Below are positions 13,751 to 30,120 of a stretch of DNA of 64,000 nucleotides, piece after piece (the stretch's first letter is position 1; each line of letters starts with the position of its first letter). Made by a program: the position numbers and the translations under genes. The notes under the pieces are model-generated. The model was not told the origin of the DNA, did no database searches, and worked only from the letters and a program-made list of their open reading frames with translations. This DNA is from Podarcis muralis (Eukaryota), in NCBI RefSeq assembly GCF_964188315.1, contig NC_135659.1, forward strand, positions 98,518,001 through 98,582,000. Direction: 5' to 3'.

Positions 13751-16700
13751 GTTAAAAGGACCAGGCTTCCACTCTGTTTTCCTGGCATGCACGTAGCAGC
13801 AGTCCCTTACTACTCAGGGAAAGTCAAATATTCATGAGCATCTCTGTGGCTCATCCTCAGACTTAGTCATATGAGCATCTGTATAGACAGCCAACTCCTC
13901 CCCTTCCCCCGGCCACTTCACTTTTCCACTAAAGCTGGTCCCAAATCTCATGCACAGGGTTCACCCCCCCCCAAACAGATGTTTTACCGGGCTCAGGTGC
14001 TGCCTGTGAGGTCCTTTCCCCCAAAATTCTGTGCAGCATGGCCAGGACACTCAGTACCCAGGTGGTCTCTCTGCCACATCTGAGATCAATCTTTGGAAGC
14101 AAAACCAGCTCTGACTGGAGTGATCCTGCAGCCTGCCAGGCTGGGAAGATGCAGGCAAAGAAGGTTCCGAAAACCCAAGAGGGCTCCCCCTGCCACCTTG
14201 ATTGAGTGCTGCGGCTCTCCTGCAGCAGCGAAGCATAGAGATCCCTCCCCCTGCATCTCCACCTCCCACCATCCCCGGGATCTAAGCACTTCCTGGTGCT
14301 ATTTTTAAAGGGACAAGTACTGGATGAAGCTTCTCGGCTGTATTTGCTTGCTCCCCAACACGGACCCAGGAATTAACAATCAGGACGCCACCTTTTGCCC
14401 CTGGTCAGTAATGTCTCTCAATAGCCTAAAACAAAAGCAGAGAGTAAACCGGGGAGAGAAGTTTGGGGCTTTTTTTAATTAAAAAACAACTTCAGGGAAG
14501 GATTAGAAGTTGCTTTCAGGTTGATCACCTTGACTTAGATTTCAAGACCCTGAAAGGTGTGGGGACTTTGATTACACAGCCTCTCCATTTTACACTGGAA
14601 AAGCGGCTCGTTTTTCACCCCCTCCCTGCAGCCTGCTCCGGCAGCAAAGTCAAAGGCAAGAGTTTTCTTCTGCCTTCCTGAAATACTAGCTTAAGTACTC
14701 TGCGCTGGCTTAAACGTTAACTGCAAAGGGTTGCAGCTGACGAGCAGAGAGGCACAGCAGACCTCAGCCGTTAGCGCAGCTCCAAAGCAGAATTCTGAGC
14801 ACAAACTCCCACCACAAACAGACCCACTTATGGGAATGAGTCATGCATGAGACATATCCCCCAAATTGGAAAGCGCAGGCACGCACAAGGCAAATGACTG
14901 CGAAGAACCAGGCAGAGGGGGTGATAGCAGGCGGCAATTGTGCCCGGCATGGCAAAGGAGCCAACTTAATGTTGAATTTGTATGAACAACCGGTCGGTGG
15001 TATTCTCTCTCTCTCTCTCTCCTGCCCACCCCAACCCTATTTCCTCCTTTGCAGGAGCTGGGAGAGGCAGGGCAGTCACAGCAGCATCCCCTTCCTCCTT
15101 CCCAGAAGGCCAGCTGGGCAACAATAGCCAGGCTATCCCCTACTGGGAGATGTGTCAAAAGGAGCTTGTGCAGTACTCACCCCCTGGAGAGGGAGGACGA
15201 GCTCAGTTCTGGGAAGTCTTAGGGGAAGGAGGAACCCAGCCAGCCGCTGTGCAGTGAATGTGGCGGAGGAGGCAGCAGCAGCAGGGATAAGTTCCAGGCA
15301 CTGGCCAACCCGCCTTGACATCACCATCGCCCCGCCTCCTAAGGGCTGGCCAAACATTCGAGCCAGCCAGCCCCCATTCCCAGATTGCAGGAGGCCTGAA
15401 AACATCAAAGCTCAGCAGATTATGAAATCTCCATTCTGTTAATTGAGCCTTCATTCAGGATTTCTTTTTGCATGTGCGTGCGTGGGAGAGCGGATTTTTG
15501 TAGTTAAAATCCCAATTTTTCTACCATTCACTCTAGCAGTATGGCACAAGCCTGTGTCCAGCACACATCTAGACTCCTTCCGCGTCCATCACAAGGAGGT
15601 TATGGGGTCTGAAAACTCCCTCTCCCCAATCTTTTATGTTCTTCTCCCGCAGTGCCATCTGAATAAAGGTTAGTCGGAAGCGAGCCCTTCTGAATCCAGC
15701 AGGAATTTGCTTCCTGGTAACCCTGAAAGTGCTTTCTGTAGGGTTGTACCACATGTGGGGAAGTGCGACAGTGGCTTCTTCAAAGGAGAGGTAACTAAAT
15801 GCCATTTTCACACAAAGACTGAGGAAGAGAAACCTTCATTCTCACCAGGCTAAAGCAAGATTCCCTAACCTGGTGCACTCCAGATGTTTTGGACTACAAT
15901 AAAAACAACTCCTATCAGTCCTTGGTCAACTTCCCCAGCCTCCTGAGCCCTTATTTCCCAGATCCTTACTGCACACAAGCCACTGCTAGGCCCTATGTGG
16001 CCTTTTCCCTGGACAAAGTGGGGTTTTTTATTTCCCTCCCAGCAGCTGTACTCTTTAAGATTTCCGTCTCCCTCTCTCCTTTGCTGGGAAAGCTACACAG
16101 GCAGGCTGAAATAAAAGACTCCTGGAGGGCACTCAGTACCTGTGATGCAATCCTGTCAGAGCACTGTAGAGTGGTCCCATGCCTCAAGGGTGTGGAGGCA
16201 CCTGTGTGCCTGTCTTCCAAGCCTTAGCCAACTGCAAATCATCCTGTCCTCCACAATGAAATCATCGAAAGTTAGAGCTGCTAACTCGAACACACAGAGA
16301 GAGAGACTTCTCTTAAGACCACCCTCTATCATTTTCTCAGGACCTTCAGCTAAACACCCTGCAGGCTACTGGGATTCAGCAATATCCGCATCTTTCTTTT
16401 CTCTCTCCTCCCCAAACATGCACAGAGCAAAGGGTTTGGCTCTGGACACACTCACTTGCAGGATGAACTCCCTGTCTGAGAACTGTCCCATCTTGGGGGA
16501 AAGGGAAAAGAAAACCAGACTCAAAAGTTTACTGCTGGGCCTTAGGTTCCCCTTGTTCTCTGTCAGAGTTCCCCGTGTGCCAGAATGACTTCTTGTCTGC
16601 AGGGGTGTGAGAAGCCAGAACGTGTCTCCCAAAACTCAAATCAAGAGGTCATGGGTATATCACTTTCTCTTTTTCTTCTCTTTTCCCACCTCTTTGCTAG

Positions 16701-16899
16701 TTTCAATTGTGTGCCGTCTCAAAATTAGATTCAGGGTTATTGTTTGGCCTTGGCAACTCTTGCGCTCATGCTGCTTATCTGCACGTGAGATGGATAGAAA
16801 AGTGCTAATTAGAAGCTTCATACTGTACTTTTAACTGAGCTTTGCAAGCAATCTGGACACTGTTTCCTGTACGTACATACCCCACTCTGTGTGAGGCTC

Positions 16900-17125
16900 A
16901 AGAGGGGGATAAGGCTATCAATGGCTACAAGTGAGCTACCTCCAGGATCAGAAACAGCATGACCCTGAATAGCTGTTGCTGGGGAATAACAGCAAAAGAG
17001 AGAGCCATTGCCCTCATGTCTTGCTTGTGGACTTCCCAGAGACATCTGGTGGGCCTCTGTGAGAACAAGGTGTTGCACTAAGTAGGTGTTCAGCCTGATA
17101 CAGCAGTCGGGCCCTTCTTATGGTT
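16900..17125 (-). mobile_element. Old squamate SINE-like repeat (cataagaagagcc family)
   Basis: Ends ...cagcagtcgggcccttcttatgg; related copies near 47285-47520, 57170-57260 and 23985-24050. Confidence 0.6.
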
Positions 17126-17518
17126 TTAAGAGCAAAGAATGTTGCTAGAGTGAAGGCAGAGTGAATTCACTCAAGAATGATGTATAATTTCTTTCTAATG
17201 CCTTTGTCATGGGTTCATCTAGCATCTCTGCTGCATCTATTGTAAAACATGTGTGCCTCACTAGAATTTCCGTGAAAAAAGGAAGAGCAGTCTCACTGAT
17301 CAAACTAGGGCCAACTTTCTGATTCTGTGGGTTTTCTTCTCCTTGCTTTCCTTCAGCTCCATCCTGACTATCCCATCCTCAACCCGCAAATCTCCACATT
17401 CACCATGTGCTTCTTTTACTGCTCTTTTTAATTTTTTACTTAGAAGAGATGCCACATTTCATCAGTTTTTTTTCCTGCCCATCCCAAGCCTAAATGAATT
17501 TAAATTGAAAACACTTTA

Positions 17519-17769
17519 CAGTCATACCTTGGTTCTTGAACGTCTTGGTACTTGGACATTTTGGCTCCCCAACACTGAAAACCCGGAAGTGAGTGTTCTG
17601 GTTTGCGAACGTTTTTTGGAAGCTGAACATCCAGCGCAGCTTCTGCAGCTTCCAACTGAGTGCAGGAAGCTCCTGCAGCCAATTGGAAGCTGCACCCTGG
17701 TTTTCGAACCGTTTCGGGAGTCGAACAGACTCCCTGATCAGATTAAGTTTGACAACCAAGGAATGACTG
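17519..17769. mobile_element. Tigger-like (Tc1/mariner) MITE
   Basis: TIRs cagtcataccttggtt / aaccaaggaatgactg with TA on both sides. Confidence 0.85.
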
Positions 17770-18300
17770 TATTGATTTGGCATATCAGAGTCTTTCAACA
17801 ATATGAAAAGTCCTGTTCCACTACCAAAGACAGCTTTCACCAACCTGGTGACCAACATGCTGATGGGATTTGCAGCCCAAAATACCTGGAAGGCACCAGG
17901 TTGGCAACGGGTGACTTAAAGCATCATCACCCCATTAGATATGGTGGAATTAAAAGCCAAGGGGCACAACAAGAAGTGCTCAGATCCCATGTCTGGAACT
18001 GGCAATTCTCTGTTGTCCCAACTATAGGATGAGCAACCCTGCCAATGATGTCTCCAATCCCAAATTCAAGCAGTTTCTCTCTGGAATTTTGGTTGGAGAA
18101 TTGAAAGCTGGGGAAGGGGCACATGTTCAGTCCCTGGCATCTCCTGAAAATGATCCCAGATCCTAAGGCTGGGAAAGATGTTGAAGAGCCACTGGCATTT
18201 GGAGTAGACATCACAGGGCTGTGTAGTTCCACAGCTAAGCTCAATATAAGGCAGCTTCATAGGTGTACAGGTGCAGATCAGGGAACCTATGCCCTTAGCC

Positions 18301-18430
18301 CAGTGGTGGCCAAACTTGGCCCTCCAGCTGCTTTGGGACTACAACTCCCATCATCCCTAGCTCCCAGTGGCCAGGGATGATGGGAATTGTAGTCCCAAAA
18401 CAGCTGGAGGGCCAAGTTTGGCCACCACTG
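18301..18430. mobile_element. Palindromic MITE, probably hAT-type (gactacaactcccatcatcc family)
   Basis: Near-perfect 57-bp arms cagtggtggccaaacttggccctccagctg...; decayed copies near 1054, 19020, 38720, 44720, 53585, 54700 and 55500. Confidence 0.8.
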
Positions 18431-19599
18431 CGCTAAGAAGACTTCGGCAAACCACACTATAGTTCCATGCACACTAATGGCATAGATCAACAAAATGGGT
18501 ATGACAGTGACCAGCTTTATGGGTTCAAGGTGAAAACCTGCAATAAATGATTATTGAGGGCACTCTGTAGATTACAAACTATGTCACCTGGTCCTTTCTC
18601 ACAGATCACAGCTCCTCACACCTTCTTTTTACACACTGTTCCTCAAACAGAGCTGTCTGTATATGTTGATTCCATTCCGATCAGCTTAACCCCTTAACAA
18701 AGCAGAGAACCAGAGGGAGAGGAAACCAGATAGCTTCCCAAGCCTGCCTTCTGGGAGAGCTGTCCAAGACCAGCTCCCTGACTACTGCACACCATTGAAC
18801 CCTACTGCTGCCTCACATTTACTGAGTTCACATGAGTCAGTATATTGCACTGGCTAAGGCACAGGCAAGCAGCCTGTGGTCCTCAGGCATAATTTCCAAC
18901 ACCCTCTTGCTCAGGTCAGACCTGTGGCCAGAATGATGTGTCGCAACCCGTTCAGCAAGAATGAAAAGGGTAGCAGTCCCACCAGCTATTAGCTTCTGCC
19001 CGGCCAAAGTTAGATGATTTCTGCAGTGTTTCTCAAACTTGGATCCCCAGCTGCGGTTGGACTAAAACGTCCATCATCCCTGGGTCCTGCTAGTTAGGTA
19101 TGGTGGGATTTGTACTCCAACAACTGCTGGGGGACCCAAGTCTGAGAAACACTGTCCGATAAGAACGGAGACCTCGTCATTAATAAAGAAAGAAAAAAGT
19201 CATTTTTAATTTCTTTCTCTCTAAGTTTTATAATTGCTTTCAGTATCAGGAGCATAAATGATGTTAGTTATATTAATTTTGTTGTTTCTTATATTGTGGT
19301 TGTTTGTTTGACTTTTCTATTATTTGTTTGTATGTTTGCTTATTTGTTTGTTTGTCTGCTTTCCCAAAAATGTATTTATTTTAAATCAATAAAGATATAC
19401 TTTAAAACCATATATCTTAAAGGTAAAAAAATAGAATAAAAATAAAAGAAAGAAAAAAGCTGTCCGATCTTGGGTGAGACCATCAGACGACATTCCTGAT
19501 GGGGAGCCATCGTTTCTCATCCTAAAGGACCTCACAGGGTTGTTGTAGTTGGGGTGAATCCTATATGCCCCTTCTCCGCCCCTTGGAGGAAGGTGCAAA

Positions 19600-20430
19600 A
19601 CTCACAGCGCATAAAAGGTCTCGCTTCCCCCTTTTGCAGAGAGCATCGCATCCGCCCTGACCCGTAACCGCATCCACTTCCTTCCCCCGCGCCCCTCCCC
19701 CGCTCCCCATTCATCTTTCTCCGATTCAACTAGGACAAAGCCCAGCCCCGCCCCCCTTCCAGAGCTGAGCCAATCACAAAGAAGGGAAGGCGAAGACGCG
19801 CATGCCCGGCACGCACTGCTTCCCCATTGGACGAGCCTCCTGTCACTCCTCTCCCGCTCGCCGCCCTCACCTCAGAAAATGCCAAGGAGCCCCGCCCCCT
19901 GCCCCGGTTCCCTTTACCGGCCTCCGTCCCCGGTTACCTCAGGGAAGAAGCGGCCGGCAGGAACCGCCGAGAGGAAGGCGCCGAGAGGGCTGGGCCGCTC
20001 CGGCGCCGGCGGAGCTTCCCTGCCACCCGACGAGGCGGCGGCTTTCTCGGCGGTTCTGCCTCGCTCCTTGACCGGCCGGGCGAAAAGAACTGGGCATGCG
20101 CGAGCAACCGCTACTTACTACTCGAAGCCGCCTTGCGCATGCGCGACTCGAAGCCGCGGGAAAAAAAAAAGGAATGGTCTGGAGTGCGCATGCGGAGGAA
20201 TGTGACGCGAGCGGGGAGGGGGGTGCGCTCTCGCGAGGGGTTAATGCGCCTGCGCGAAGAGCGGCGCGCCAGGCAAAGGAAAGGCGTTGGCGCCCTCTCT
20301 CGGCCGAAGACCGGCATCGCGTGGGAAAAGAGGTCGGCGGTGCTGATATTGCAATGACTGCCTCTGCGTGGAGAGACGCGCTTGGCAGAGTGGCGTTGCC
20401 GTGATTTTCTGCGGGGTTTACAGCAAGTAA
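19600..20430. promoter_or_regulatory. CpG-island promoter, probable BCL2L1 5' end, probably bidirectional
   Basis: CpG-dense; NRF1-type GCGCATGCGC sites at 20134-20145, 20185-20195, 20245-20256, 20094 and 19798; TCTCGCGAG at 20229; CCAAT 19770, ATTGG 19826; minus-strand donors GAG|GTAACC (19937) and GAG|GTGAGG (19870); plus-strand donor CAA|GTAAGA (20427). Confidence 0.8.
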
Positions 20431-20450
20431 GATCTAACGTAGTAGCCTAA

Positions 20451-20990
20451 AGGGAAGTTTTCCTTCTGCCCATACCTGCTGCATTTTGGGGAAGCCTTGC
20501 ACCTCTTTTTCTTGCATTCTGGAAAGTCTCGCTTACAATCTGCTTCTGCACAAACTGTACAAAACTGTTCCAAACACCAGGACATTCTTTTCCTTGCTCA
20601 GTCCACCCTAAGTTCATGATGACTTGTTCTTTATGCCTAGCTGACCACATCTACAGAACTTGATTGTTATATTGTTTCATGCTATGATCCATCATTAGTA
20701 ATTGTTTGTGCCATATTAATCTCTAGTTACAATTTAATTAGGAGGCTTCATGCCTGTCTAGTTCTAGCTTCGATTCCCAGCCTTTAATCCATCGATAATA
20801 AATGATCACACGTAATCCCCACCTCTCACATGTAATTCCCGCCTTATGCTTATGTATCAACCAATCAGTGACAAGCACACCTGTGGCAATGTTTGTAATA
20901 TTCAATAAAAGAGGCTCCCAGGGTCCGCCCTGGCCAGACGCCTCATGTTACACCTGCCTCTCTCGTCTCCTGTGATTTTTCATTCCTACA
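20451..20990 (+). mobile_element. ERV 5' LTR (5' boundary uncertain)
   Basis: Ends ...ttcctaCA just before the PBS; CCAAT at 20861, AATAAA at 20904; no clear TG... start found. Confidence 0.7.
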
Positions 20991-20992
20991 TC

Positions 20993-21010
20993 TGGTGACC
21001 CACGACGTGC
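20993..21010 (+). promoter_or_regulatory. Retroviral primer-binding site, tRNA-Trp type
   Basis: TGGTGACCCACGACGTGC versus the ASLV Trp PBS TGGTGACCCCGACGTGAT (one inserted base); major splice donor GTGAGT at 21089 just before the gag ATG. Confidence 0.8.
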
Positions 21011-21094
21011 CAGATCCCTTGCGCAGCCGAGCAGCCAGCCAGCCCTCATACTTCACTTCGACTGGAGAAGTCTCAAGCGCGCTGTTTCGTGAGT

Positions 21095-21820
21095 ATGGGG
21101 GGGGGGGAATTGAGTAAGCTTCAAAAATTGCATGCTAGGGAATTACTGCAGCTGGTTAGGCAAAGAGGGGTGGGTGTACATATTTCTTTAAAAGAGATTG
21201 AACAATTGCTAGGTGAGATCGCATTCCAATGTCCCTGGTACCCTGAGGCAGGCTCCTTGGGGGTAGAGGCTTGGCAAAAGATTGGAAAAACTTTTTTTGC
21301 AGAACCCAGGGCTCCTATTCATTGTCTGCTAACTTGGCAGAAATGTGCAGATGCCGTGGCAAAATTAGGACCTCAGGCGTCCCAGGCGTCTCCCTCGGCC
21401 CCTGCATTTCTGTCTGTTGGAGACAACCCCCCTCCTTATCCTAAGCTTCTGCCTCCCTCACAACCCTGCCTGTCCCCCCCCCCCTTGCCTGTGTCTGCAT
21501 CTCCAGGACCTGTGCCTCAGCTCACATCCACCCCCAACACCCCCCCTTCCCTCCCTCCTGTGTCTCCTTTGCCTGCATCTGCTTCTTCAGAAGCTGTGTC
21601 TCAGCCCACATCCACTTCCCCCCCTTTTTCTTCCCTCCCTCCTTCCACCCCTCCCTTGCCTGCCTCAGCTCCTGCATGTTTTACAGGAGCTGTCCGTGCT
21701 GCACTTTCTCAAGCTAGGCAGAAAGGTCTCCTTTCCTTAGAGGAAGAATCTGAGTGGGCTGGTGAAATGCCATCAGCTTTCCCTGTCTCCAGCTCAACCC
21801 CATCAGCTTTCCCCATTTCC
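21095..21820 (+). pseudogene. gag: ERV gag, 5' part: myristoylated matrix plus proline-rich region with late domains
   Basis: MG start; CPWYPEAGSL...WQKIG resembles betaretroviral MA (CPWFPxxGT...WxRVG); PSAP and PPPY motifs; interrupted at the predicted CA start (SAF|PI) by an L1. Confidence 0.9.
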
Positions 21821-22250
21821 TTTTTTTTTTTTTTAATAATTTTTTATTAGAGGTTTTTCTTATGGTTACAAAGATAAAACAAAACATGACAATACATTAA
21901 AACATAACAAACAAATAATAACAAGTATACTTTCAAATCTTATTTTCTTAGACCTTACTTCCCTGACTTCCTCATGCTTCCCCTTTCTGTGTTCCAATTT
22001 CTAATCAATTACTCAGCAAATCTTCTCGTATTTTAACTTAATTTACTCATTTTTCTCCTTGTCTTAACCATTACCGCTATCAACCATTTATTTCACTAAT
22101 CCGTCATCCTTCTAAACTTCATAAATTTTGCAATATTTCTTTAAATAGTCCTTAAATTTTCTCCACTCCTCCTCCGCTGCTTCTCTTCCCTGGTTTCGGA
22201 TTCTGCTCGTCATCTCTGCTAGGCCCATGTAGTCAATCACCTTCATCTGC
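21821..22250 (-). mobile_element. 5'-truncated L1-clade LINE inserted into gag, 17-bp TSD
   Basis: Poly(T) on plus strand, ORF2 C-terminus WQMKVIDYMGLAEMT...EWRKFKDYLKK; TSD cagctttccc(c/t)atttcc at 21804-21820 and 22251-22267. Confidence 0.9.
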
Positions 22251-22261
22251 CAGCTTTCCCT

Positions 22262-22605
22262 ATTTCCTACACTAACCCAGGCACTGCGCAGCAACAGGTG
22301 TTGTACGAAACCCTTCCCTATTCTGTAATGAGAGAATTGAGAAGGGCCATTGCTGATTCCGGTTTAAAATCTTCCTATGTGACAGGAATGCTGGAGGGAA
22401 TAGCAACTGCTTCAACTGCAATCGCCCAGGTCATTTTGCTAAACAATGCAGAGCCCCTGGCGGGGGTGCAAACAGGAATGGTGATGCCAATAAGGCTAAG
22501 CCTTCCAAGAAATGCCCAAAGTGCGGTAAAGGCTATCATTGGGCAAATCAGTGCAGGAGTTCGGGAAACTCCTTAGGGGCCCCACTCCCGGGCCAGGACA
22601 AATAG
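22262..22605 (+). pseudogene. gag: ERV gag, 3' part: CA N-terminus joined out of frame to NC with two zinc knuckles
   Basis: YETLPYSVMRELRRAIADSGLKSSYVTGMLEGIA, then from 22408 in another frame CFNCNRPGHFAKQC and CPKCGKGYHWANQC (CX2CX4HX4C); stop TAG at 22603-22605. Confidence 0.9.
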
Positions 22606-22609
22606 GGAG
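22563..22609 (+). promoter_or_regulatory. -1 ribosomal frameshift signal: GGGAAAC plus H-type pseudoknot
   Basis: Slippery heptamer 22563-22569; S1 GGCCC(22578-82)/GGGCC(22590-94), S2 CTCCC(22585-89)/GGGAG(22605-09). Confidence 0.85.
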
Positions 22610-22620
22610 CCCCCCCGCCG

Positions 22621-22839
22621 TTAGTCTCCACTATTAAAACCATCTCAAAGGATACACGCTCTGATTTTACCATCGACTTACTTAATCAGGAAACCAAAGA
22701 CACTGTTTTACCTGGTGAAATCGTGCTCATGCCTTCCCAATTGAAAGCCCCCCTACCTCCTAAAGTCGCAGGCTTAATTTTACCCAAATTTTCTGCGGCC
22801 AAAGAAGGGATCCAGGTTATTCCAGGAGTTCTGGATCCT
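22621..22839 (+). pseudogene. ERV degenerate dUTPase (N-terminal part of pro)
   Basis: AGLILPKFSAAKEGIQVIPGVLD resembles the dUTPase GLIxGRSSxxxKGLxVxPGVID motif, in the position betaretroviruses use. Confidence 0.7.
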
Positions 22840-23106
22840 TTATCCCGCTCTCGATATCGCCGCTCTGTGGAATTGACTAATGATTGTGATGCTTTTGTCT
22901 CTCTTCCCAGTAGGTCTGAATATATCTCTTTAGCTGTTTTTCTCTTAGGAGTCCCTGGATTGGCTGTACGGAATCGTATGAACATTTATTCTTTAGCTTG
23001 TTCTGCAGAAAAAGCCCTGAATTTTACTTCAGAAGCTCTTCACCTTTTGAATAAAGAACAGAGTGGACTACATAATGGACTTTTACAAAATTGCGCTATA
23101 GATTAA
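22840..23106 (+). pseudogene. env: ERV env fragment: furin site and TM ectodomain up to the immunosuppressive domain
   Basis: RSRYRR|SV, Cys-bracketed internal hydrophobic segment (C...ISLAVFLLGVPGLAV...LAC), heptad repeat, LLQNCAID (cf. LQNRAAID). Confidence 0.85.
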
Positions 23107-23424
23107 TACAAAATTGGGGAATTCGTGGAAGGGAATTGGGGTCGACCTTAGAAAAAGATTTTAAGATTAAGTATTGATGTACAAAAACTGATGTTTATAA
23201 GTTAAAATTGGTTAACTAAAATGAATTAAATATAATAAGGTAAAATTTGGGGATAAGAACTTGCTGAGCTAATAATTGGAACTGGAATACAAGAAGGGGA
23301 GATGTGGGGAAGTCAGGGAAATATGTTATTGAAAGTAAGGAATGTAAATTCTATGTGTTTTTAATTTTCTTTTGTTTTTTCTGTCTTTTTTGAAAATTTT
23401 AATAAATATATTTTATTTAAAAAA
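23107..23424 (+). mobile_element. L1-clade 3' UTR with A-rich tail
   Basis: ggggaagtcagggaaa motif shared with the 3' UTR of the L1 at 21821-22250; ends aataaatatattttatttaaaaaaa. Confidence 0.7.
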
Positions 23425-23963
23425 AGATGCCTGCTTCTTGAGAGAAAAGTGATGACAAACCTAGACAGCATCTTAAAAAGCAGAGACATCACCTTGCCAA
23501 CAAAGGTCCATATAGTTAAAGCTATGGGTTTCCCAGTAGTGATGTATGGAAATGAGAGCTGGACCATAAAGAAGGCTGATCGCCGAAGAATGGATGCTTT
23601 TGAATCATGGTGCTGGAGGAGACTCTTGAGAGTCCCATGGACTGCAAGAAGATCAAGGCTATCCATTTTTAAGGAAATCAGCCCTGACCGCTCACTGGAA
23701 GGACAGATCCTGAAGCTGAGGCTCCAAGACTTTGGCCACCTCATGAGAAGAGAAGACTCCTTGGAAAAGACCCTGATGTTGGGAAAGATGGAGGGCACAA
23801 GGAGAAGGGGACGACAGAGGATGAGATGGTGGGACAGTGTTCTCGAAGCTACCAGCATGAGTTTGACCAAACTGCGGGAGGCAGTGGAAGACAGGAGTGC
23901 CTGGCGTGCTCTGGTCCAGGGGGTCACGAAGAGGCGGACACGACTAAATGACCAAAAAACAAC
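23425..23963 (+). mobile_element. RTE-BovB LINE 3' fragment
   Basis: MTNLDSILKSRDITLPTKVHIVKAM...WTARRS...LEGQILKLRLQDFGHLMRR...; (CAA)n tail. Confidence 0.97.
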
Positions 23964-24268
23964 AAGATCTAACATAGTAGCGTAAGAGCCAAAGGCCTAT
24001 CTAGCCAAGCCTTCCTGTCTAGAGTGGGCAACCAGATGTCCCAACGGGAAGTTGGCAAACAGGACCTGAATGCTTCAGTGATTTCCCGGCTTGGGAATCT
24101 CAAAACTCTCACCATCTTATTTAGCTGTTTGCAAAAAGCAAAACAAAGCAAAAACAAAAAAAGCTACTACCTAGCTATAATCAGGAATTTTAAAACAATT
24201 AAGGCAGCTCTGCCAGAATAGAAGAAAACAAGCAGAAAGTTTTCTCACCAGCAAAAGCAACAGAAGTA

Positions 24269-25164
24269 CAGTGGTGCCTCGCAAGACGAACCCCTCGCAA
24301 AACGAAAAACTCGCAAGACGAAAGAGTTTTCCGTTTTTGAGTTGTTCCGCAAGACAAATTTCCCTATGGGCTTGCTTCGCAAGAAGAAAGCCCATAGGGA
24401 AATCTCCGGGGACCTCTTTTAAATGCTGGTGGTGGGGAGCAAAGCCTTTTGCCCCCCTCCGGCCTTCAGAAGAGGTCCAGGAAGGCCGGCGGGGGCCGAA
24501 AGGCTTTGCTCCCCACCGCCAGCATTTTAAAAGCGGTCCGGGATAGCACGGAATTGCGCTGCGCTTTCCCGCTATCCCGGACCACTTTTAAAATGCTGGC
24601 CGTCGGGAGCAAAGACTTTCGCCCACCGCCGGCCTTCAGAAGAGGTCCTGGACCTCTTTTGAAGGCCGGCGGGGGGCAAAAGTCTTTGCTCCCCCCCGCC
24701 TGCCTTCCCGGGATAGCGGAGAAGCGCAGCGCGTTTCTCTGCTATCCCGGACGGCTTTTGAAGGCAGGCGGGGGGGAGCAAAGACTTTCGCCCACCGCCT
24801 GCCTTCAGAAGACCTCCGCTGTCCCGGGGGCTTTTAAAATGCTGGCGGTCGGCAGCAAAGCCCTCCTGTCCCCGGAGCTTGCGGGGCGGGAGGTGGGGAG
24901 AAGGGCTTTTCTTCCCACCGCCAGCCTTCAGAACAGCCTTCTGAAGGCTGGCGGTGGGAAGTAAAGCCCTTGCCCCCCCCCCCAGCCTTCAGAAGAGGTC
25001 GGGGGACAGACTGTCCCCGGACCTGGTCTGAAGGCGATTTCCATAGGGACGCATTGATTGATTTTCAATGCATTCCTATGGGAAACCGTGCTTCGCAAGA
25101 CGAAAAACTCGCAAGAAGAAAAAACTTGCGGAACGAATTAATTTCGTCTTGCGAGGCACCACTG
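24269..25164. mobile_element. Tigger-like MITE, 896 bp, GC-rich repetitive interior
   Basis: TIRs cagtggtgcctcgcaagacgaa / ttcgtcttgcgaggcaccactg, TA on both sides; internal direct and inverted ccttcagaag / aaagactttcgcccaccgcc subrepeats. Confidence 0.92.
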
Positions 25165-25783
25165 TACTGATGATGAAGATGCAGTTGGAAGAGTATTAAC
25201 ATGCAGCCCAATATCTTTGCAGTTACTCAGCAGTCACACTCTTTGAATTACTTGGGACTTACTCCCAAGTAACTGGATAGGTTTGCATCCATCTATCTCA
25301 AATTATAAGACCACTGATTTGGAGTGCAATCCTAATATACAGACCTGGAGGCAGGAGAGGCCCTCTACTGATGGAGAGAAAATCTGTGTGTGTAAATCAT
25401 CTACCTTCTGTGTTTTTAAAAGCAGCAGGCCCTCAAAAGGCCTGCTTCAGAGCAGGTCACAGGTAGCTTTGGATTCTCTGGATCCAAGGCCCCTTTCTTC
25501 ACCTGAGTGGTTCCAGGACTGGGTCCGTCAAATGTGCCAGCCTTGAGAAGCGATAGAATAGCTCCAGGACGTTTGGTCCAGCTGTTGGTCTGCATAGAGG
25601 ATTCTGATTCTGTGGATCGTTGTTCAGAAGTGAGTCTCACTGGCCACCCAGATTCTGTATGAAGAGCTGCTGATATCACTCATGGTAGAGAGTATAGCCT
25701 GTGGGGGCGGGGGATATTCTGCACATTTTCAAATATTTTGAAAGCCCCCCATTTCAATGCCATTTGAATAAGCACTCTGCTAC

Positions 25784-26129
25784 AGGGTGGCGCTGTGGGT
25801 TAAACCACAGAGCCTAGGACTTGCCGATCAGAAGGTCGACGGTTTGAATGCCCGCGATGACGGGGTGAGCTCCCGTTGCTCGGTTCCTGCTCCTGCCAAC
25901 CTAGCAGTTCAAAAGCACGTCAAAGTGCAAGTAGATAAATAGGTACTGCTCTGGCGGGAAGGTAAACGATGTTTCCGTGCACTGCTCTGGTTTGTCAGAA
26001 GCGGCTTAGTCCTGCTGGCCACATGACCCGGAAGCTGTATGCCGGCTCCCTCGGCCAATAAAGCGAGATGAGCGCCGCAACCCCAGTCACGACTGGACCT
26101 AATGGTCAGGGGTCCCTTTACCTTTACCT
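25784..26129 (+). mobile_element. Near full-length Sauria SINE
   Basis: gggtggcgctgtgggttaaaccacagagcc ... gtccctttacctttacc. Confidence 0.93.
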
Positions 26130-26319
26130 ACCAGGTATCTTTAGGTGTTTTCAGAGATGACAAGTGAACTAGTTTGTGAAAAGAGGAAAATACTGATCCT
26201 GACTTCTCTCTTTGCTTTTTTTGCCAGGATCCAATCTGGCACCAAGTCACACTCTTTTCAATGTTACACAAGCACAATGCTTCCTCCCCGGCTCATGTCC
26301 TGCTCCTTTTTTAAAAAAA

Positions 26320-26960
26320 GATTTTTTATTAAATTTTCACATTTTATCTCCAACCAATTCAACCATTAAAATATTAGGTTCGCTGAAACTTCGGACTTCC
26401 TTCCCTCCCTCCCATGGGTTCTTAAATTAAAATTTTAAGTTTTCCACATCTTTTACTTTATCCAACTATTGTATATCACTAATTATCATAATCAATTTCA
26501 CATTACAAATGTCATTACAATGCTACCAATGATTTTAACTGTTTGCAGTGTTTTTTTAAGTAAACTACAAATTTACTCCAATCTCTAACAAATACTTATC
26601 TTCCCCGTCAGTTTCGCCATTTCTGCATATTCCATCAAATTCGCCTGCCATTCTTCCTTTGTGCTCATGTCATGTTCCTTTCTAGTCTTGGCTACTGTAA
26701 TCTCCTCTTCTGTGACCTCACATTATCTCATTTTTGACACCTTGAATTTATCCAGCACTCTCTGCCCCACACCACTCACCTCTCTTGTTGCTGTTACTCT
26801 GGTTAGAAGGTGCTCCTCCTTAAATACCAGCTCTGGTTTCTTTCCCACAAGCTCCTCATCTAATCCGTGGCCCCTGCCTTACAAAACTGAGCTTGGGCCA
26901 AGGAAACCTGTTTGGAAATGTCGTAAGAAGAAGACTGCTTCCTTTCCCTCATGGGATATC
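26320..26960 (-). mobile_element. L1-clade LINE 3' fragment
   Basis: Minus strand encodes EWQANLMEYAEMAK (ORF2 C-terminus), followed by an AT-rich UTR and tail. Confidence 0.75.
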
Positions 26961-26983
26961 TAAGAGCCCGTATAGAGTCCTTA

Positions 26984-27617
26984 TGTAGGTTCTCAATCCG
27001 TAGGAGAAAATAACAGAGGCCAACCAGAGAATATTGAGATACAAAGCAGCTAGTAAGCCTGATTTTTATTAAACTGTTGCAACACGCAGGGAGGGAGGAA
27101 AGGAGCCCAGAACATTGGTGTGCAAGCTCTTATATAGACTTTTGAAACCCTGTAGCTCAAGACCACCCCCCAAAACATCATACATACATCACAGAAAGAG
27201 GTGGTCCCCAGCAGAAATTTGAGTGTGTTGCTTCTCTCCTGTCTGCCAGGATACCTGATAATGCCTCATCTGAGTGCCTTTTCTGGGTAGGCTGGCCATT
27301 CCTTGGAGATGGTAAATACTTAGTTCCTGGATCTCTTACACATATTGATAGTTTGCTTAGTTTAACAGATACTTGCCAGACTGTATTTGAAAAGCGAGGT
27401 GTAAGCCCCTACAGTCCAAAGAAAATTGGGAAGCTTTCCCCATTTCCTTCCTCCTTTCAGAGAAATATTTGAGGACAATTTGGGAGAGTCAAAATGGCTT
27501 CAGGATTGTTCTCCTGTACTATTTCAGTCGCGTGGTTTATATACTTATGTATGTGTTTGCCTTGTACATTTATGAACATTTATTTTCTATATATAAGACC
27601 TTAGAATTCCTATAACA
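26984..27617 (-). mobile_element. Probable solo LTR
   Basis: Minus strand starts TGTTATAGG and ends CCTACA, with TATA (ctatataag, about 27130) about 65 nt before AATAAA (about 27065); no TSD confirmed. Confidence 0.45.
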
Positions 27618-28435
27618 GAAACAACTAGCCTCTAGCATGTGGAATGAGATTATCTTGATCAAGTGCAAACACCACAGAATGATGGGAGGTTTCACATTTT
27701 TATTTCCTACCATGTTTGCACAGCAAGGTTGCCCTTCTCTAATGGAGGTAATAAAGTCTGTCTTTGATAAACACAGATAAACATGTTTCTCTGTTCCACA
27801 GCCAGGCAGCCAGGATACAACTGTTGATAAGAGTCAGTTGGGGTGAGGGCTTGCCTTTCCCATGCAGGAAGATGAGAGGAACACCTCTGTAACTGCACAA
27901 ATTCTTCACACATGCCTTGGACCTCTTGGGTACAACAAAATGTCTTCATTACGTTAAGAAGTCTGGACTGTTTGCATCTCTTCACACTTCAGTCTTACTG
28001 GCCAGCTGTCCAGCCCTCTTTAGCCTTTGTTGACCTTGGAAAACAGTCCCTCTTGGCCTCATCCACTATGGGCTGCCTGTAATAAAAAACCATCCACATG
28101 CCACACAACCTTGGAGTTTGTTAAGTTAAACTCTAATTATTACTTTTAACAAATGAGAAACCACAGAAATGTTTGGCTACCTTCTTTTATCTACTATATA
28201 AAATAGATTCTATAAAATGCCTTCTTACGTTATGGCTTCATATGTTCAGGCTCAGGAAATGTCTTCCTAATAACGTATCCTGTACCTGAAGGATTCCATA
28301 CAAGGTTACAGTATATGATAAAATTGTTGGTTGCCACAGAATAGTCTTAAGTGGACATGCCAGGACATTTGTGCTTTGATGATGTTCCAAAGATGTTGAT
28401 ACATCGCATTTAGCTAGATGGAACATTGAATCACC

Positions 28436-28769
28436 TTGTTGTTGTTTAGTCGTTTAGTCACGTCCGCCTCTTTGTGACCCCATGGACCAGAGCACGCCAG
28501 GCACTCCTGTCTTCCACTGCCTCCCGGTTTGGCCAAACTCATGCTGGTAGCTTCGAGAACACTCCCTGGAAAAGACCCTGGTGTTGGGAAAGATGGAGGG
28601 CACAAGGAGAAGGGGACGACAGAGGACGAGATGGTTGGATGGTGTTCTCGAAGCTACTAACATGAGTCTGACCAAACTGCGGGAGGCAGTGGAAGACAGG
28701 AGTGCCTGGCATGCTCTGGTCCAGGGGGTCACGAAGAGTCGGACACGACGAAATGACTAAACAACAACA
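28436..28769. mobile_element. Two BovB 3' ends fused head-to-head (inverted duplication)
   Basis: Minus-strand tail 28436-28563 and plus-strand 28561-28769 share about 128 nt in inverted orientation; (CAA)n tails point outward. Confidence 0.9.
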
Positions 28770-28999
28770 GCGTTAAGAATGGAGCCTGCATGTTCAGAGG
28801 CAGTCTACCTGCATCTGCCATGTGCTTGGGGGCCAAAGAGCAAGCTTTCTTTCTGGGCACCTGATTGGCTACTGGGAGGATACAGGATGCAACTGCCAAT
28901 TGTTGGGGATGACTGGGGGTCAAAAACATCTGGAGGGCACCCCAGTCCTTCAGGCCTCTTTTTGAAATCCTTGAGGACTAGCCACCTCCATCTAATTCA

Positions 29000-29935
29000 C
29001 CCTCAGGACCGACCACTTAAAACGCACGGAGGCGCGTTTGCTTTTTATTTATTCCCCCGCGCTACCCTTGCTGGGACTCGTAGTTCATTCGGTGCCCTCC
29101 TCCTCGGCTTGCCTTTAGTCCATGCCCCTCTTGCCGAACTACGTTTCCCAGGAGGCCGCGCGGCCTGGAGCCGCGAAGGACGATGGGGCGAGCGCGCCCT
29201 CGAGGAGGCCGGCGAGAGGGGCGGGGCACCCGAGTCCCAACGCCATCCGGGACTTGTTGTTTTTTCCCCTTCTCCCCGCCCTCCCGCCCGTCAGTTCCGC
29301 CCTCTGCCCCAATCAGCGCGCCACGGGGACCCTGAGGCGGGCGGCGATTGGCCAGTTCGGAAGGGAGGCCGAAGTTTGAAATATTTAAACGGCGGTAACG
29401 GCGGAGGGCGCTGAGGCGACGGCGAGACGAGGCCCCGGCGGTTCCGAGGTACGGGAGGCGAGAACCGGGAGTGGCCAGAGGAAAGAGACGGGAGGGGAAA
29501 AAAAAAAGATTCGGGAGAGCGGCTGCTTTCCCTGCGGTCCGCCCATCCCGCTCACCTGAGGTAAAAACCGCAGGTAGTTCCGTGGGTTCTGAAGGTGCTG
29601 AGTCCGAATTTCAGGGCCCTGAGGGGAAGCCCCTCCCCAGCCCCGACCCCTCCGGTACTGTCCTGGGTCTGTCGGTTTGGTTCCCCCCGCCCGCCCGCCT
29701 TTGTTTCCCTATTTGAATTGGCCTCGGCGGCTCGCTTCCGCGCCAGTCTCCCCCCGCTGGGCTTCCCGGTGGAAGAGGGCGCCGTGTCCGAAGCCCCGGA
29801 GAGCCGCTTCCAGTCGGGGGAGACTCGTTCGAGCTCGCGAGTCTGAGTCTCCCTTGGGCAGCTTCCTATTGTGGGGATTCTGGGGGTGGAAATGGGCCCT
29901 ATAGCCTGGGGAGTGGCTCAGGGCCTCCTCCCTCC
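29000..29935 (+). promoter_or_regulatory. TPX2 CpG-island promoter with CCAAT boxes and CHR
   Basis: CCAAT 29309-29313, ATTGG 29347-29351, GC box 29339-29344, CHR TTTGAA 29375-29380 followed by TTTAAA 29384-29389: the standard G2/M (DREAM, MMB-FOXM1) layout. Confidence 0.88.
29395..29448 (+). other. TPX2: Probable TPX2 non-coding exon 1 (TSS approximate)
   Basis: Donor GAG|GTACGG at 29449 just downstream of the CHR; alternative donors at 29561 and 29574. Confidence 0.6.
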
Positions 29936-30120
29936 NNNNNNNNNNNNNNNNNNNNNNNNNNNNNNNNNNNNNNNNNNNNNNNNNNNNNNNNNNNNNNNNN
30001 NNNNNNNNNNNNNNNNNNNNNNNNNNNNNNNNNNNNNNNNNNNNNNNNNNNNNNNNNNNNNNNNNNNNNNNNNNNNNNNNNNNNNNNNNNNNNNNNNNNN
30101 NNNNNNNNNNNNNNNNNNNN
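29936..30120. other. Assembly gap (185 N)
   Basis: Run of N. Confidence 1.

Follow-up and report, generated by a model that had tools for sequence, protein, structure and literature searches.

A truncated lizard provirus and its reptile class II lineage: a betaretrovirus-like backbone with a probably chimeric envelope

The element in the window

The DNA analysed here, called the window, is a stretch of 64,000 nucleotides from the lizard Podarcis muralis (assembly GCF_964188315.1, contig NC_135659.1, forward-strand positions 98,518,001 to 98,582,000); coordinates count from its first letter. It holds a class II endogenous retrovirus (ERV), a 3'-truncated, non-autonomous copy composed of a 5' long terminal repeat (LTR), a tRNA-Trp primer-binding site (PBS), matrix, nucleocapsid, half a dUTPase, half a transmembrane envelope subunit (TM) and three pieces of long interspersed elements (LINEs). 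The copy is dead, and ordinary apart from its site at a host promoter. It is probably a relic of a lacertid class II family within a reptile-wide lineage, in which a betaretrovirus-like backbone carries a chimeric envelope (Env) produced by envelope replacement.

All viral parts are on the + strand. The 5' LTR of 543 bp (20448..20990) ends TA...CA, with termini set by 6-bp duplications seen in other copies, and is identical at 541/543 positions to both LTRs of a sister copy, L023. The PBS (20993..21011) has a one-base insertion and matches the 3' end of the genome's tRNA-Trp genes (3/3 loci called tRNA-Trp), as the original prediction had proposed. A candidate major splice donor, suggested by its sequence only, lies at 21089..21094, directly 5' of the gag ATG. 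The 5' part of gag (21095..21821) encodes a betaretrovirus-type matrix with Gly2 and a myristoylation-like start (Pfam Gag_p10, E 5.6e-11), followed by a proline-rich region; besides the predicted late-domain motifs PSAP (21392) and PPPY (21428) it contains YPKL (21437). The capsid start (22251..22412, a Pfam Gag_p24 fragment) is cut by a deletion of ~550 bp (junction 22403-22412), common to several autosomal copies in alignments to L031, L033, L034 and L023. The nucleocapsid (22408..22605; Pfam zf-CCHC and zf-CCHC_5) has two CCHC knuckles, at 22408 and 22513, and the gag-pro slippery site GGGAAAC occupies 22563-22569, both again as predicted.

The N-terminal half of a degenerate dUTPase follows (22606..22839; Pfam dUTPase E 7.8e-5, at cut-off). 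At the junction 22835-22839, ~3.8 kb are lost, namely the rest of the dUTPase, the protease, pol, the env leader and the surface subunit (SU). This deletion fuses the dUTPase in frame with TM, and L023 carries the same junction on another contig. The last viral segment (22840..23105) contains the end of SU, a furin site RYRR (22852) and the N-terminal half of an alpha-type TM, which stops there; it includes a Cys-bracketed internal fusion peptide, a glycan site and the start of the immunosuppressive domain (ISD). The TM residues quoted in the original prediction are present as given, and their assignment to the alpha type (Cys 8 and 46) stands. The 5' LTR, an antisense LINE in gag, the capsid deletion, the ~3.8-kb deletion and the loss of the 3' half had not figured in that prediction.

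Copies, age and selection

The TM stretch gave 108 genome matches among 134 candidates scored, 58 of them on contig C20. In four of 20 fetched stretches (L024, L027, L030 and L031), ~7.7 kb between paired LTRs hold gag, dUTPase-pro, pol and env, in that order. Full-length relatives with pol were thus recovered, and separate pol/RT (reverse transcriptase) and TM trees were built. The dUTPase that had been expected before pro is found there in the long copies of the family, not in the window copy, which has no protease. Shorter copies form a deletion series: pol and SU are lost in some (e.g. L022, L025, L026), the capsid also in others (L033, L034, L036, L040), and the protease as well in the window and L023, which are 96-99.6% identical and share a junction at different sites. 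Deletion junctions common to independent sites mean that the deleted forms spread by copying in trans.

Nine LTR pairs differ by 0-1.4%, which gives an age of roughly 0-7 million years at assumed rates. Synonymous divergence (dS) between copies reaches 0.7-0.8, far above the LTR-pair difference. When L030 was compared with up to six copies, the ratio of non-synonymous to synonymous divergence (dN/dS) was 0.04-0.09 for RT, 0.07-0.21 for RNase H-integrase, 0.10-0.26 for env and 0.15-0.29 for the dUTPase region; all genes are under purifying selection in these comparisons. High dS between copies, purifying selection and near-identical LTR pairs together fit a replicating virus that repeatedly entered the germline. 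Among named proteins, the nearest come from Podarcis lilfordi (RT part 91%, TM 92%).

Contig C20, which we infer to be the W chromosome, makes up 2% of the genome and carries 37/62 exact LTR starts and 52/59 RT matches (150 of 2447 candidates scored); 18/43 LTR starts are still on C20 once an amplified block with identical flanks is set aside. In that block (C20, ~0.9-4.4 Mb), proviral copies recur with identical flanks and RT, which inflates copy counts. LINE insertions lie inside or next to several long copies, with LINE-like frames in or beside L028, L029 and L031. In L031, a purine run precedes the 5' LTR, which has no target duplication; this suggests recombination between copies.

Backbone and pol phylogeny

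A squamate class II ERV with beta-like Gag and dUTPase-pro had been predicted, and the long copies bear this out. The matrix is Gag_p10, whereas the alpharetrovirus record L053 has Retro_M; the protease occupies a separate frame, whereas that of L053 lies within the gag frame. The betaretroviral combination of a -1 shift arrangement for a separate pro, two nucleocapsid knuckles and a beta-type matrix is present in full. The integrase scores 225 bits against a mouse mammary tumour virus (MMTV)-type entry versus 150 against a Rous sarcoma virus (RSV)-type entry. Gag and RT are nearest to solved entries of HERV-K and Mason-Pfizer monkey virus (MPMV), identities that we assume in part from the PDB codes. 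The long copies have no G-patch and no tRNA-Lys primer. Their dUTPase stands at the N-terminus of pro, and what we take to be its motifs 2, 4 and 5 are degenerate in 3/3 long lizard copies; the motifs are better kept in two sea-turtle relatives.

Two phylogenies were computed, an RT tree by a quick method (67 rows) and a pol tree (32 rows, 846 columns); they omit most near-duplicate rodent matches and about half of the 120 listed proteins. Among named members, the lizard pol groups with non-avian reptiles only (SH-aLRT 100 in the RT tree, 100/100 in the pol tree), and the lizard copies adjoin a Gopherus tortoise sequence (93/86). Alpharetroviruses are placed among avian class II rows (95/99).

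Envelope and leader

In the env frames, SU has no CXXC (0/11) and CX6CC is found in 10/11. The TM cysteines 8 and 46 surround an internal hydrophobic stretch in 5/6 env frames with a furin match, and the ISD is present; the corresponding positions are 9-10 and 45-46 in alpharetrovirus records, and no such cysteines occur in four type-D records. The best solved match of TM is that of avian sarcoma and leukosis viruses (ASLV; 42 bits vs 20.6 for syncytin-2). In the SU+TM tree, the lizard family shares an 11-row clade (87/91) with Mabuya Env4 and with envelopes of turtles and iguanians, and in the TM tree lizard, turtle and Sceloporus sequences come together (95/93). The envelope of avian leukosis virus (ALV) joins avian and amphibian envelopes (88/92), so the suggested relevance of the lizard family to the origin of alpharetroviral Env is not supported in the form proposed. 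A gamma-type TM with an N-terminal fusion peptide was not encountered, nor, in the literature searched, was the family found catalogued as a standard betaretrovirus. A scan of viral contigs with an avian env gave no match. A structure model of Env (predicted local distance difference test, pLDDT, 55.7) yielded weak matches to filovirus GP1 (best E 1.2e-3) and was not used.

In front of this alpha-type SU/TM, Env starts with a leader of ~97 residues, which lies past the pol overlap. It matches Pfam HERV-K_REC in 3/3 copies (E 9e-4 to 5e-3). With E 9.5e-9, the beta-type Env of L049 is the top match of a profile made from six reptile env N-termini, the next real row being at 0.03 and the best of 420 shuffles at 0.94; this profile has no match to ALV or amphibian envs. 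An exhaustive search gave 31 matches among 1.84e9 proteins, with a Rec match at E<=0.05 in 19/30 scanned, while a word-based homologue search returned two Podarcis proteins only. Nine of ten leader relatives looked up are named and comprise eight reptile clusters (Anolis, Phrynocephalus, Hemicordylus, two from Caretta, Lepidochelys, Mauremys and Gopherus) and one caecilian. The leader is joined to an alpha-type SU/TM in Anolis P0155, Caretta P0169 and Mauremys P0172; in P0169, dUTPase, protease, leader and alpha-type SU/TM stand in one gene model. By its sequence, the leader resembles a betaretroviral Rec/Rem-like signal peptide. Because a beta-type leader is joined to an alpha-type SU/TM, the family would belong to a recombinant lineage of lizards and turtles whose breakpoint lies behind the leader.

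Leader and SU/TM also occur apart: P0156 (Rhinatrema) and P0191 (Hemicordylus, a cluster-mate of a leader match) sit on long env branches. A Rec-like leader is also fused to a periphilin C-terminal domain in the gene model P0182 and to a sugar transporter in P0171; both are probably annotation chimeras.

Primer site, LTR ends and integration

The perfect 18-mer of the Trp PBS equals that of the alpharetrovirus record L053. It occurs 11 times in the genome, directly 3' of an LTR of the lizard family in 6/6 occurrences checked. Many family LTRs start TA, not TG, and other copies start TG. Among 30 loci chosen by a TA-starting pattern, an LTR end was located in 16; the solo LTRs of this set have exact 6-bp duplications in 8/8. 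Among TA-type proviruses, 4/6 have them as well, with one mismatch in one further case and no duplication in the last. No LTR end was found at the other 14/30 loci, and a retry on 10 of them gave no duplication. According to the available text of a review, RSV does not need CA at its U3 end (PMC12789967). The lizard TA ends present in nature what had been shown with RSV mutants.

The pro-pol junction

Relative to the protease, the pol gene is in the +1 frame in 9/9 family copies, and two stops block the -1 frame. The protease stop overlaps an ATG of the RT frame in the arrangement ATG-nn-TAA. Because RT is under strong selection (dN/dS 0.04-0.09), Pol was made. In the betaretrovirus records scored, the pro-pol shift is -1 in 6/8 and +1 in 2/8. 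According to the consulted sections of a review, beta- and deltaretroviruses as a rule make two -1 shifts, and AUGnnUGA is a stop-restart pattern of caliciviruses (PMC3542737). An acceptor-like site lies 104 nt 5' of the pol ATG, with no ATG between. Production of Pol from a spliced pol RNA or by stop-restart has almost an even chance; a +1/-2 slip is a serious contender, and some other route is improbable. A +1 junction under purifying selection asks how an orthoretrovirus makes and packages Pol without a second -1 shift.

A run upstream of the start-stop that resembles a termination upstream ribosome-binding site (TURBS) was discarded as evidence, as it coincides with the protease LWGRD codons. 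Two mammalian records have A AAT TTA in the pro frame, yet their pol is +1 to pro (L047:4490-4590, L048:3626-3726). Other class II copies of the lizard genome (L101-L104, on C2 and C7), with RT 57-60% identical to that of the family, show the usual -1 arrangement between pro and pol, with the site A AAT TTA.

Interpretation and alternatives

The best reading is a recombinant, preferred to an alpha/beta intermediate. An ancestor with a beta-type env would have exchanged, by recombination, what lies downstream of its long signal peptide for an alpha-type SU/TM, and the Rec/Rem-like leader would have stayed. In the resulting virus, tRNA-Trp would prime reverse transcription, as its PBS indicates, and a myristoylated Gag would presumably use its three late-domain motifs. 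A -1 shift at GGGAAAC, consistent with the frames, would yield Gag-Pro, and Pol, +1 to the protease behind ATG-nn-TAA, would come by a non-standard route. Env would be made from a spliced RNA, its leader acting as signal peptide and probably as a helper in RNA export or translation; furin cleavage, covalent SU-TM linkage through CX6CC and an internal fusion loop may be as in ALV. Integration makes 6-bp duplications even where U3 starts TA, as those flanking such LTRs show. The virus would have entered the germline repeatedly in infectious form, deleted derivatives being copied later in trans; the window copy would have integrated at a CpG-island promoter, and LINE insertions, together with the removal of its 3' half, would later have put it out of action. 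In its working, such a virus would resemble a betaretrovirus equipped with an ALV-type entry machine, and it is best placed in neither genus.

Several observations weigh against the recombinant. The window element itself holds no pol and no leader. The Rec match is under the Pfam cut-off (19.7 vs 27.5 bits), and the leader profile has no significant match to MMTV-like (E 0.78) or Jaagsiekte sheep retrovirus (JSRV)-like envs. P0122, which has a close SU/TM, lacks the leader. Long leaders may already have been present in the ancestor of class II viruses, the direction of replacement being a deduction. The groupings in the SU+TM tree are unstarred, with long branches flagged and only type-D envs as outgroups, and none of the trees contains ERV-AB-Mun of the caecilian Microcaecilia, the python ERV, EAV or LPDV. 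As forced unions of the reptile pol with ALV or with core mammalian betaretroviruses are not rejected, an intermediate position keeps some probability. At the pro-pol junction, the mammalian betaretrovirus records L047 and L048 are also +1, without ATG, and in a second lizard family, whose junction is the normal -1, 3/4 copies carry an ATG equally far away; the junction ATG may be incidental.

Among the alternatives, the one that survives best, doubtful as it is, sees the family as a reptile branch of the caecilian ERV-AB-Mun lineage, whose description would already cover its features. Layout, size and youth are alike (7295 nt, 202 copies and identical LTRs in the accessible text of PMC12690878), and the caecilian protein P0156 carries the same leader. 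However, the ERV-AB-Mun pol is reported there next to alpharetroviruses, whereas the lizard pol is in the reptile clade, and P0156 has no match to the lizard SU/TM.

The original prediction had favoured an alpha/beta intermediate. In the form weighed here, the reptile clade would be sister to avian class II viruses and alpharetroviruses, with both Trp primer and alpha-type Env ancestral, and would give a picture of the ALV ancestor. The best pol tree joins the reptile clade with the avian/alpha group (62/93), a forced union of reptile sequences with ALV alone is not rejected (p 0.25), the Trp PBS is identical to that of ALV and there is no G-patch; the 6-bp duplication and the tolerance of a non-CA U3 end recall what the review PMC12789967, in its available text, reports for RSV. 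But support for the union is weak, a forced union of the reptile clade with the core mammalian betaretroviruses is not rejected either (p 0.23), the ALV env belongs with amphibian envelopes and the Env leader is beta-type. Moreover, a second lizard class II family (L038) has the same kind of Env with a different PBS, and PBS type is described as a poor taxonomic marker in the available part of PMC8922424. Given a pol in a reptile-only clade and alpharetroviruses among avian class II rows, this reading is unlikely. Its premise that alpha envelopes are avian only is also outdated, going by the accessible text of PMC13568524 and PMC12690878. That the pairing of dUTPase and TM is a local accident (rearrangement or assembly join) and not a virus, as their direct fusion in a locus full of LINE pieces might suggest, is refuted by the long copies, in which paired LTRs enclose gag, pro and pol together with this env, and by the same fusion junction in L023 on another contig.

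A more far-reaching picture, advanced only tentatively and rather unlikely as a whole, is that of an unnamed, genus-level lineage of complex reptile retroviruses that moves between lizards and turtles and still invades the lacertid germline. It would keep a Rec/Rem-type regulator (a type reported only from mammals) from a beta-type env, use an alpha-type fusion machine, make the lacertid Pol free from its own AUG (by spliced RNA or stop-restart) as in foamy viruses, and integrate normally with a TA U3 end.

Insertion history, host context and other observations

A 19-bp direct repeat on the + strand (20429..20447 and 23964..23982, 17/19 identical), a LINE-type target duplication, flanks the 3.5-kb insert on both sides; no further match within 4 mismatches occurs on the + strand of the window. 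Within gag, a segment on the - strand (21822..22250), whose poly(A) end suggests the 3' end of a LINE, was inserted after integration: it is absent from all aligned family copies and has its own duplication of ~18 bp, seen as an 18-bp overlap in the alignment of the window to L023. The 3' end of a second LINE (23106..23421, +), a high-copy repeat with 732 candidates, replaces the rest of TM and the 3' LTR. It is followed by a 5'-truncated LINE with a CAA tail (23422..23965, +), which we take to be of the RTE/BovB family; repeats 91-93% identical to it exist at other loci, and CAA-tailed loose ends were also seen.

In the simplest order of events, the RTE-type LINE came first and the provirus second, into the LINE's duplication, because the LTR, inside the 19-bp repeat, begins at its usual first base; two LINE insertions and the deletion followed. 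This order implies a coincidence of sites. Conceivably, the whole insert was transduced by a LINE from a source locus; a second copy of the TM/LINE junction, which would speak for this, was not found among 40 scored of the 732 candidates. In DNA run X1, one contig connects 20439 with 23975, as in an empty site, with ~2% other letters (the species of the run may differ from that of the window), and another contig covers the filled 3' junction at similar depth. The insert is apparently polymorphic, with an empty and a filled site.

Upstream, a CpG island holds the first exon of a host gene (19892..20219, - strand); strand-biased RNA depth in runs X23, X24 and X21 marks it as transcribed. The minus-strand transcript starts ~250 bp upstream of the insert and points away from it. 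A host gene on the + strand with the insert in its first intron, as a donor-like sequence at 20426 might suggest, was rejected, since three runs, each read to ~6-12%, show no RNA depth at 20220-20383. RNA reads cover the LTR at 1-16x and gag, nucleocapsid, dUTPase and most of TM at ~0-4x; they are mostly 90-95% alike and cannot be assigned to the window copy. An Rfam search of window positions 15000-30000 gave no match.

Elsewhere in the window, CpG-island-like regions with repeated GCGCATGCGC-type motifs occupy 19600-20400 and 29000-30000, the first of which drives the minus-strand transcript. A GC-rich element of ~950 bp (24222-25170) has internal inverted repeats and terminal inverted arms and is similar to miniature inverted-repeat transposable elements (MITEs). 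An exact 82-bp tandem duplication lies at 51264-51427.

The same genome holds the second, more distant class II family of L038 (L038:2246-9401, L037 and L039, on C15, C11 and C20), ~35% identical in Gag and ~42% in env to the first, with an alpha-type Env, 701-bp LTRs and a different primer site. A tRNA-Met primer was considered for it; 0/4 pattern loci held a tRNA gene, and the unverified label was not used.

Comparison with known systems

A class II pol with an alpha-type env, in a caecilian, and alpha-type envelopes of reptiles are already in print. A 2013 account (PMC3758190, available text) gave the avian gamma-type Env as a feature of alpharetroviruses alone. The accessible text of PMC13568524 reports alpha-type envelopes from amphibians, reptiles, monotremes and bats, calls them "ubiquitous" in reptiles and lists 14 Podarcis loci in its Table J, which may or may not belong to the lizard family. 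Squamate and turtle beta-like ERVs are noted in PMC6001957, avian alpha-beta ERVs in PMC3482500 and PMC1224870, and long betaretroviral Env signal peptides in PMC2649029, each in the portions consulted. The literature searched, only partly aimed at these points and including few subscription journals, contained no mention of this lizard family, a reptile chimeric leader, a +1 start-stop junction or TA ends, nor of a degenerate dUTPase of such a family; the family may be catalogued in repeat databases, which lay outside the search. The present analysis ties reptile beta-like pol and reptile alpha-type envelopes, treated apart in print, to one virus lineage in which the retained leader would mark the point of envelope exchange. 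It bears on the exchange of alpha-type (and filovirus-like) fusion proteins between retroviral backbones and on a possible presence of beta-type Env and Rev-like regulation outside mammals.

The caecilian ERV-AB-Mun (Chen, Guo and Zhang 2021, as cited in PMC12690878, bioRxiv 2024.07.05.601823), compared by its partial description only, shares with the lizard family a class II pol with YMDD, a separate pro frame, an alpharetrovirus-like env, youth and high copy number; its pol is reported near alpharetroviruses, whereas that of the lizard family falls in a reptile-only clade. The Mabuya Env3/Env4-type envelopes of reptiles are close on the Env side, the lizard TM being 49% identical to Env4 and in the same SU+TM clade. 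However, Env4 is without the long leader, and Mabuya-like envelopes are described in the available text as envelope loci, with a bat lineage on a gammaretroviral pol (PMC13568524).

Python molurus ERV (PyERV) and the squamate and turtle beta-like ERVs resemble the family in their reptile class II backbone (accessible portions of PMC3758190 and PMC6001957) and probably belong to the same pol clade; unlike the lizard family, PyERV is reported there to lack a dUTPase, to carry a murine gamma-type env and to use -1/-1 frameshifts. With alpharetroviruses (ALV/RSV) and avian alpha-beta ERVs, the family has in common the Trp PBS, an SU without CXXC, the Cys-flanked internal fusion peptide, CX6CC and the 6-bp duplication; unlike them it has a protease outside the gag frame, another matrix family, a dUTPase and a separate pol clade, with an RT ~50% identical to theirs. 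Finally, like the betaretroviruses (MMTV, MPMV/simian retrovirus (SRV), JSRV, HERV-K HML-2), it combines Gag_p10, two knuckles, GGGAAAC, a dUTPase before the protease and, putatively, a long Env signal peptide of Rec/Rem type, and its closest solved RT, integrase and Gag are theirs; it differs from them in a Trp instead of a Lys primer, no G-patch, a degenerate dUTPase, an alpha-type SU/TM and a +1 pol.

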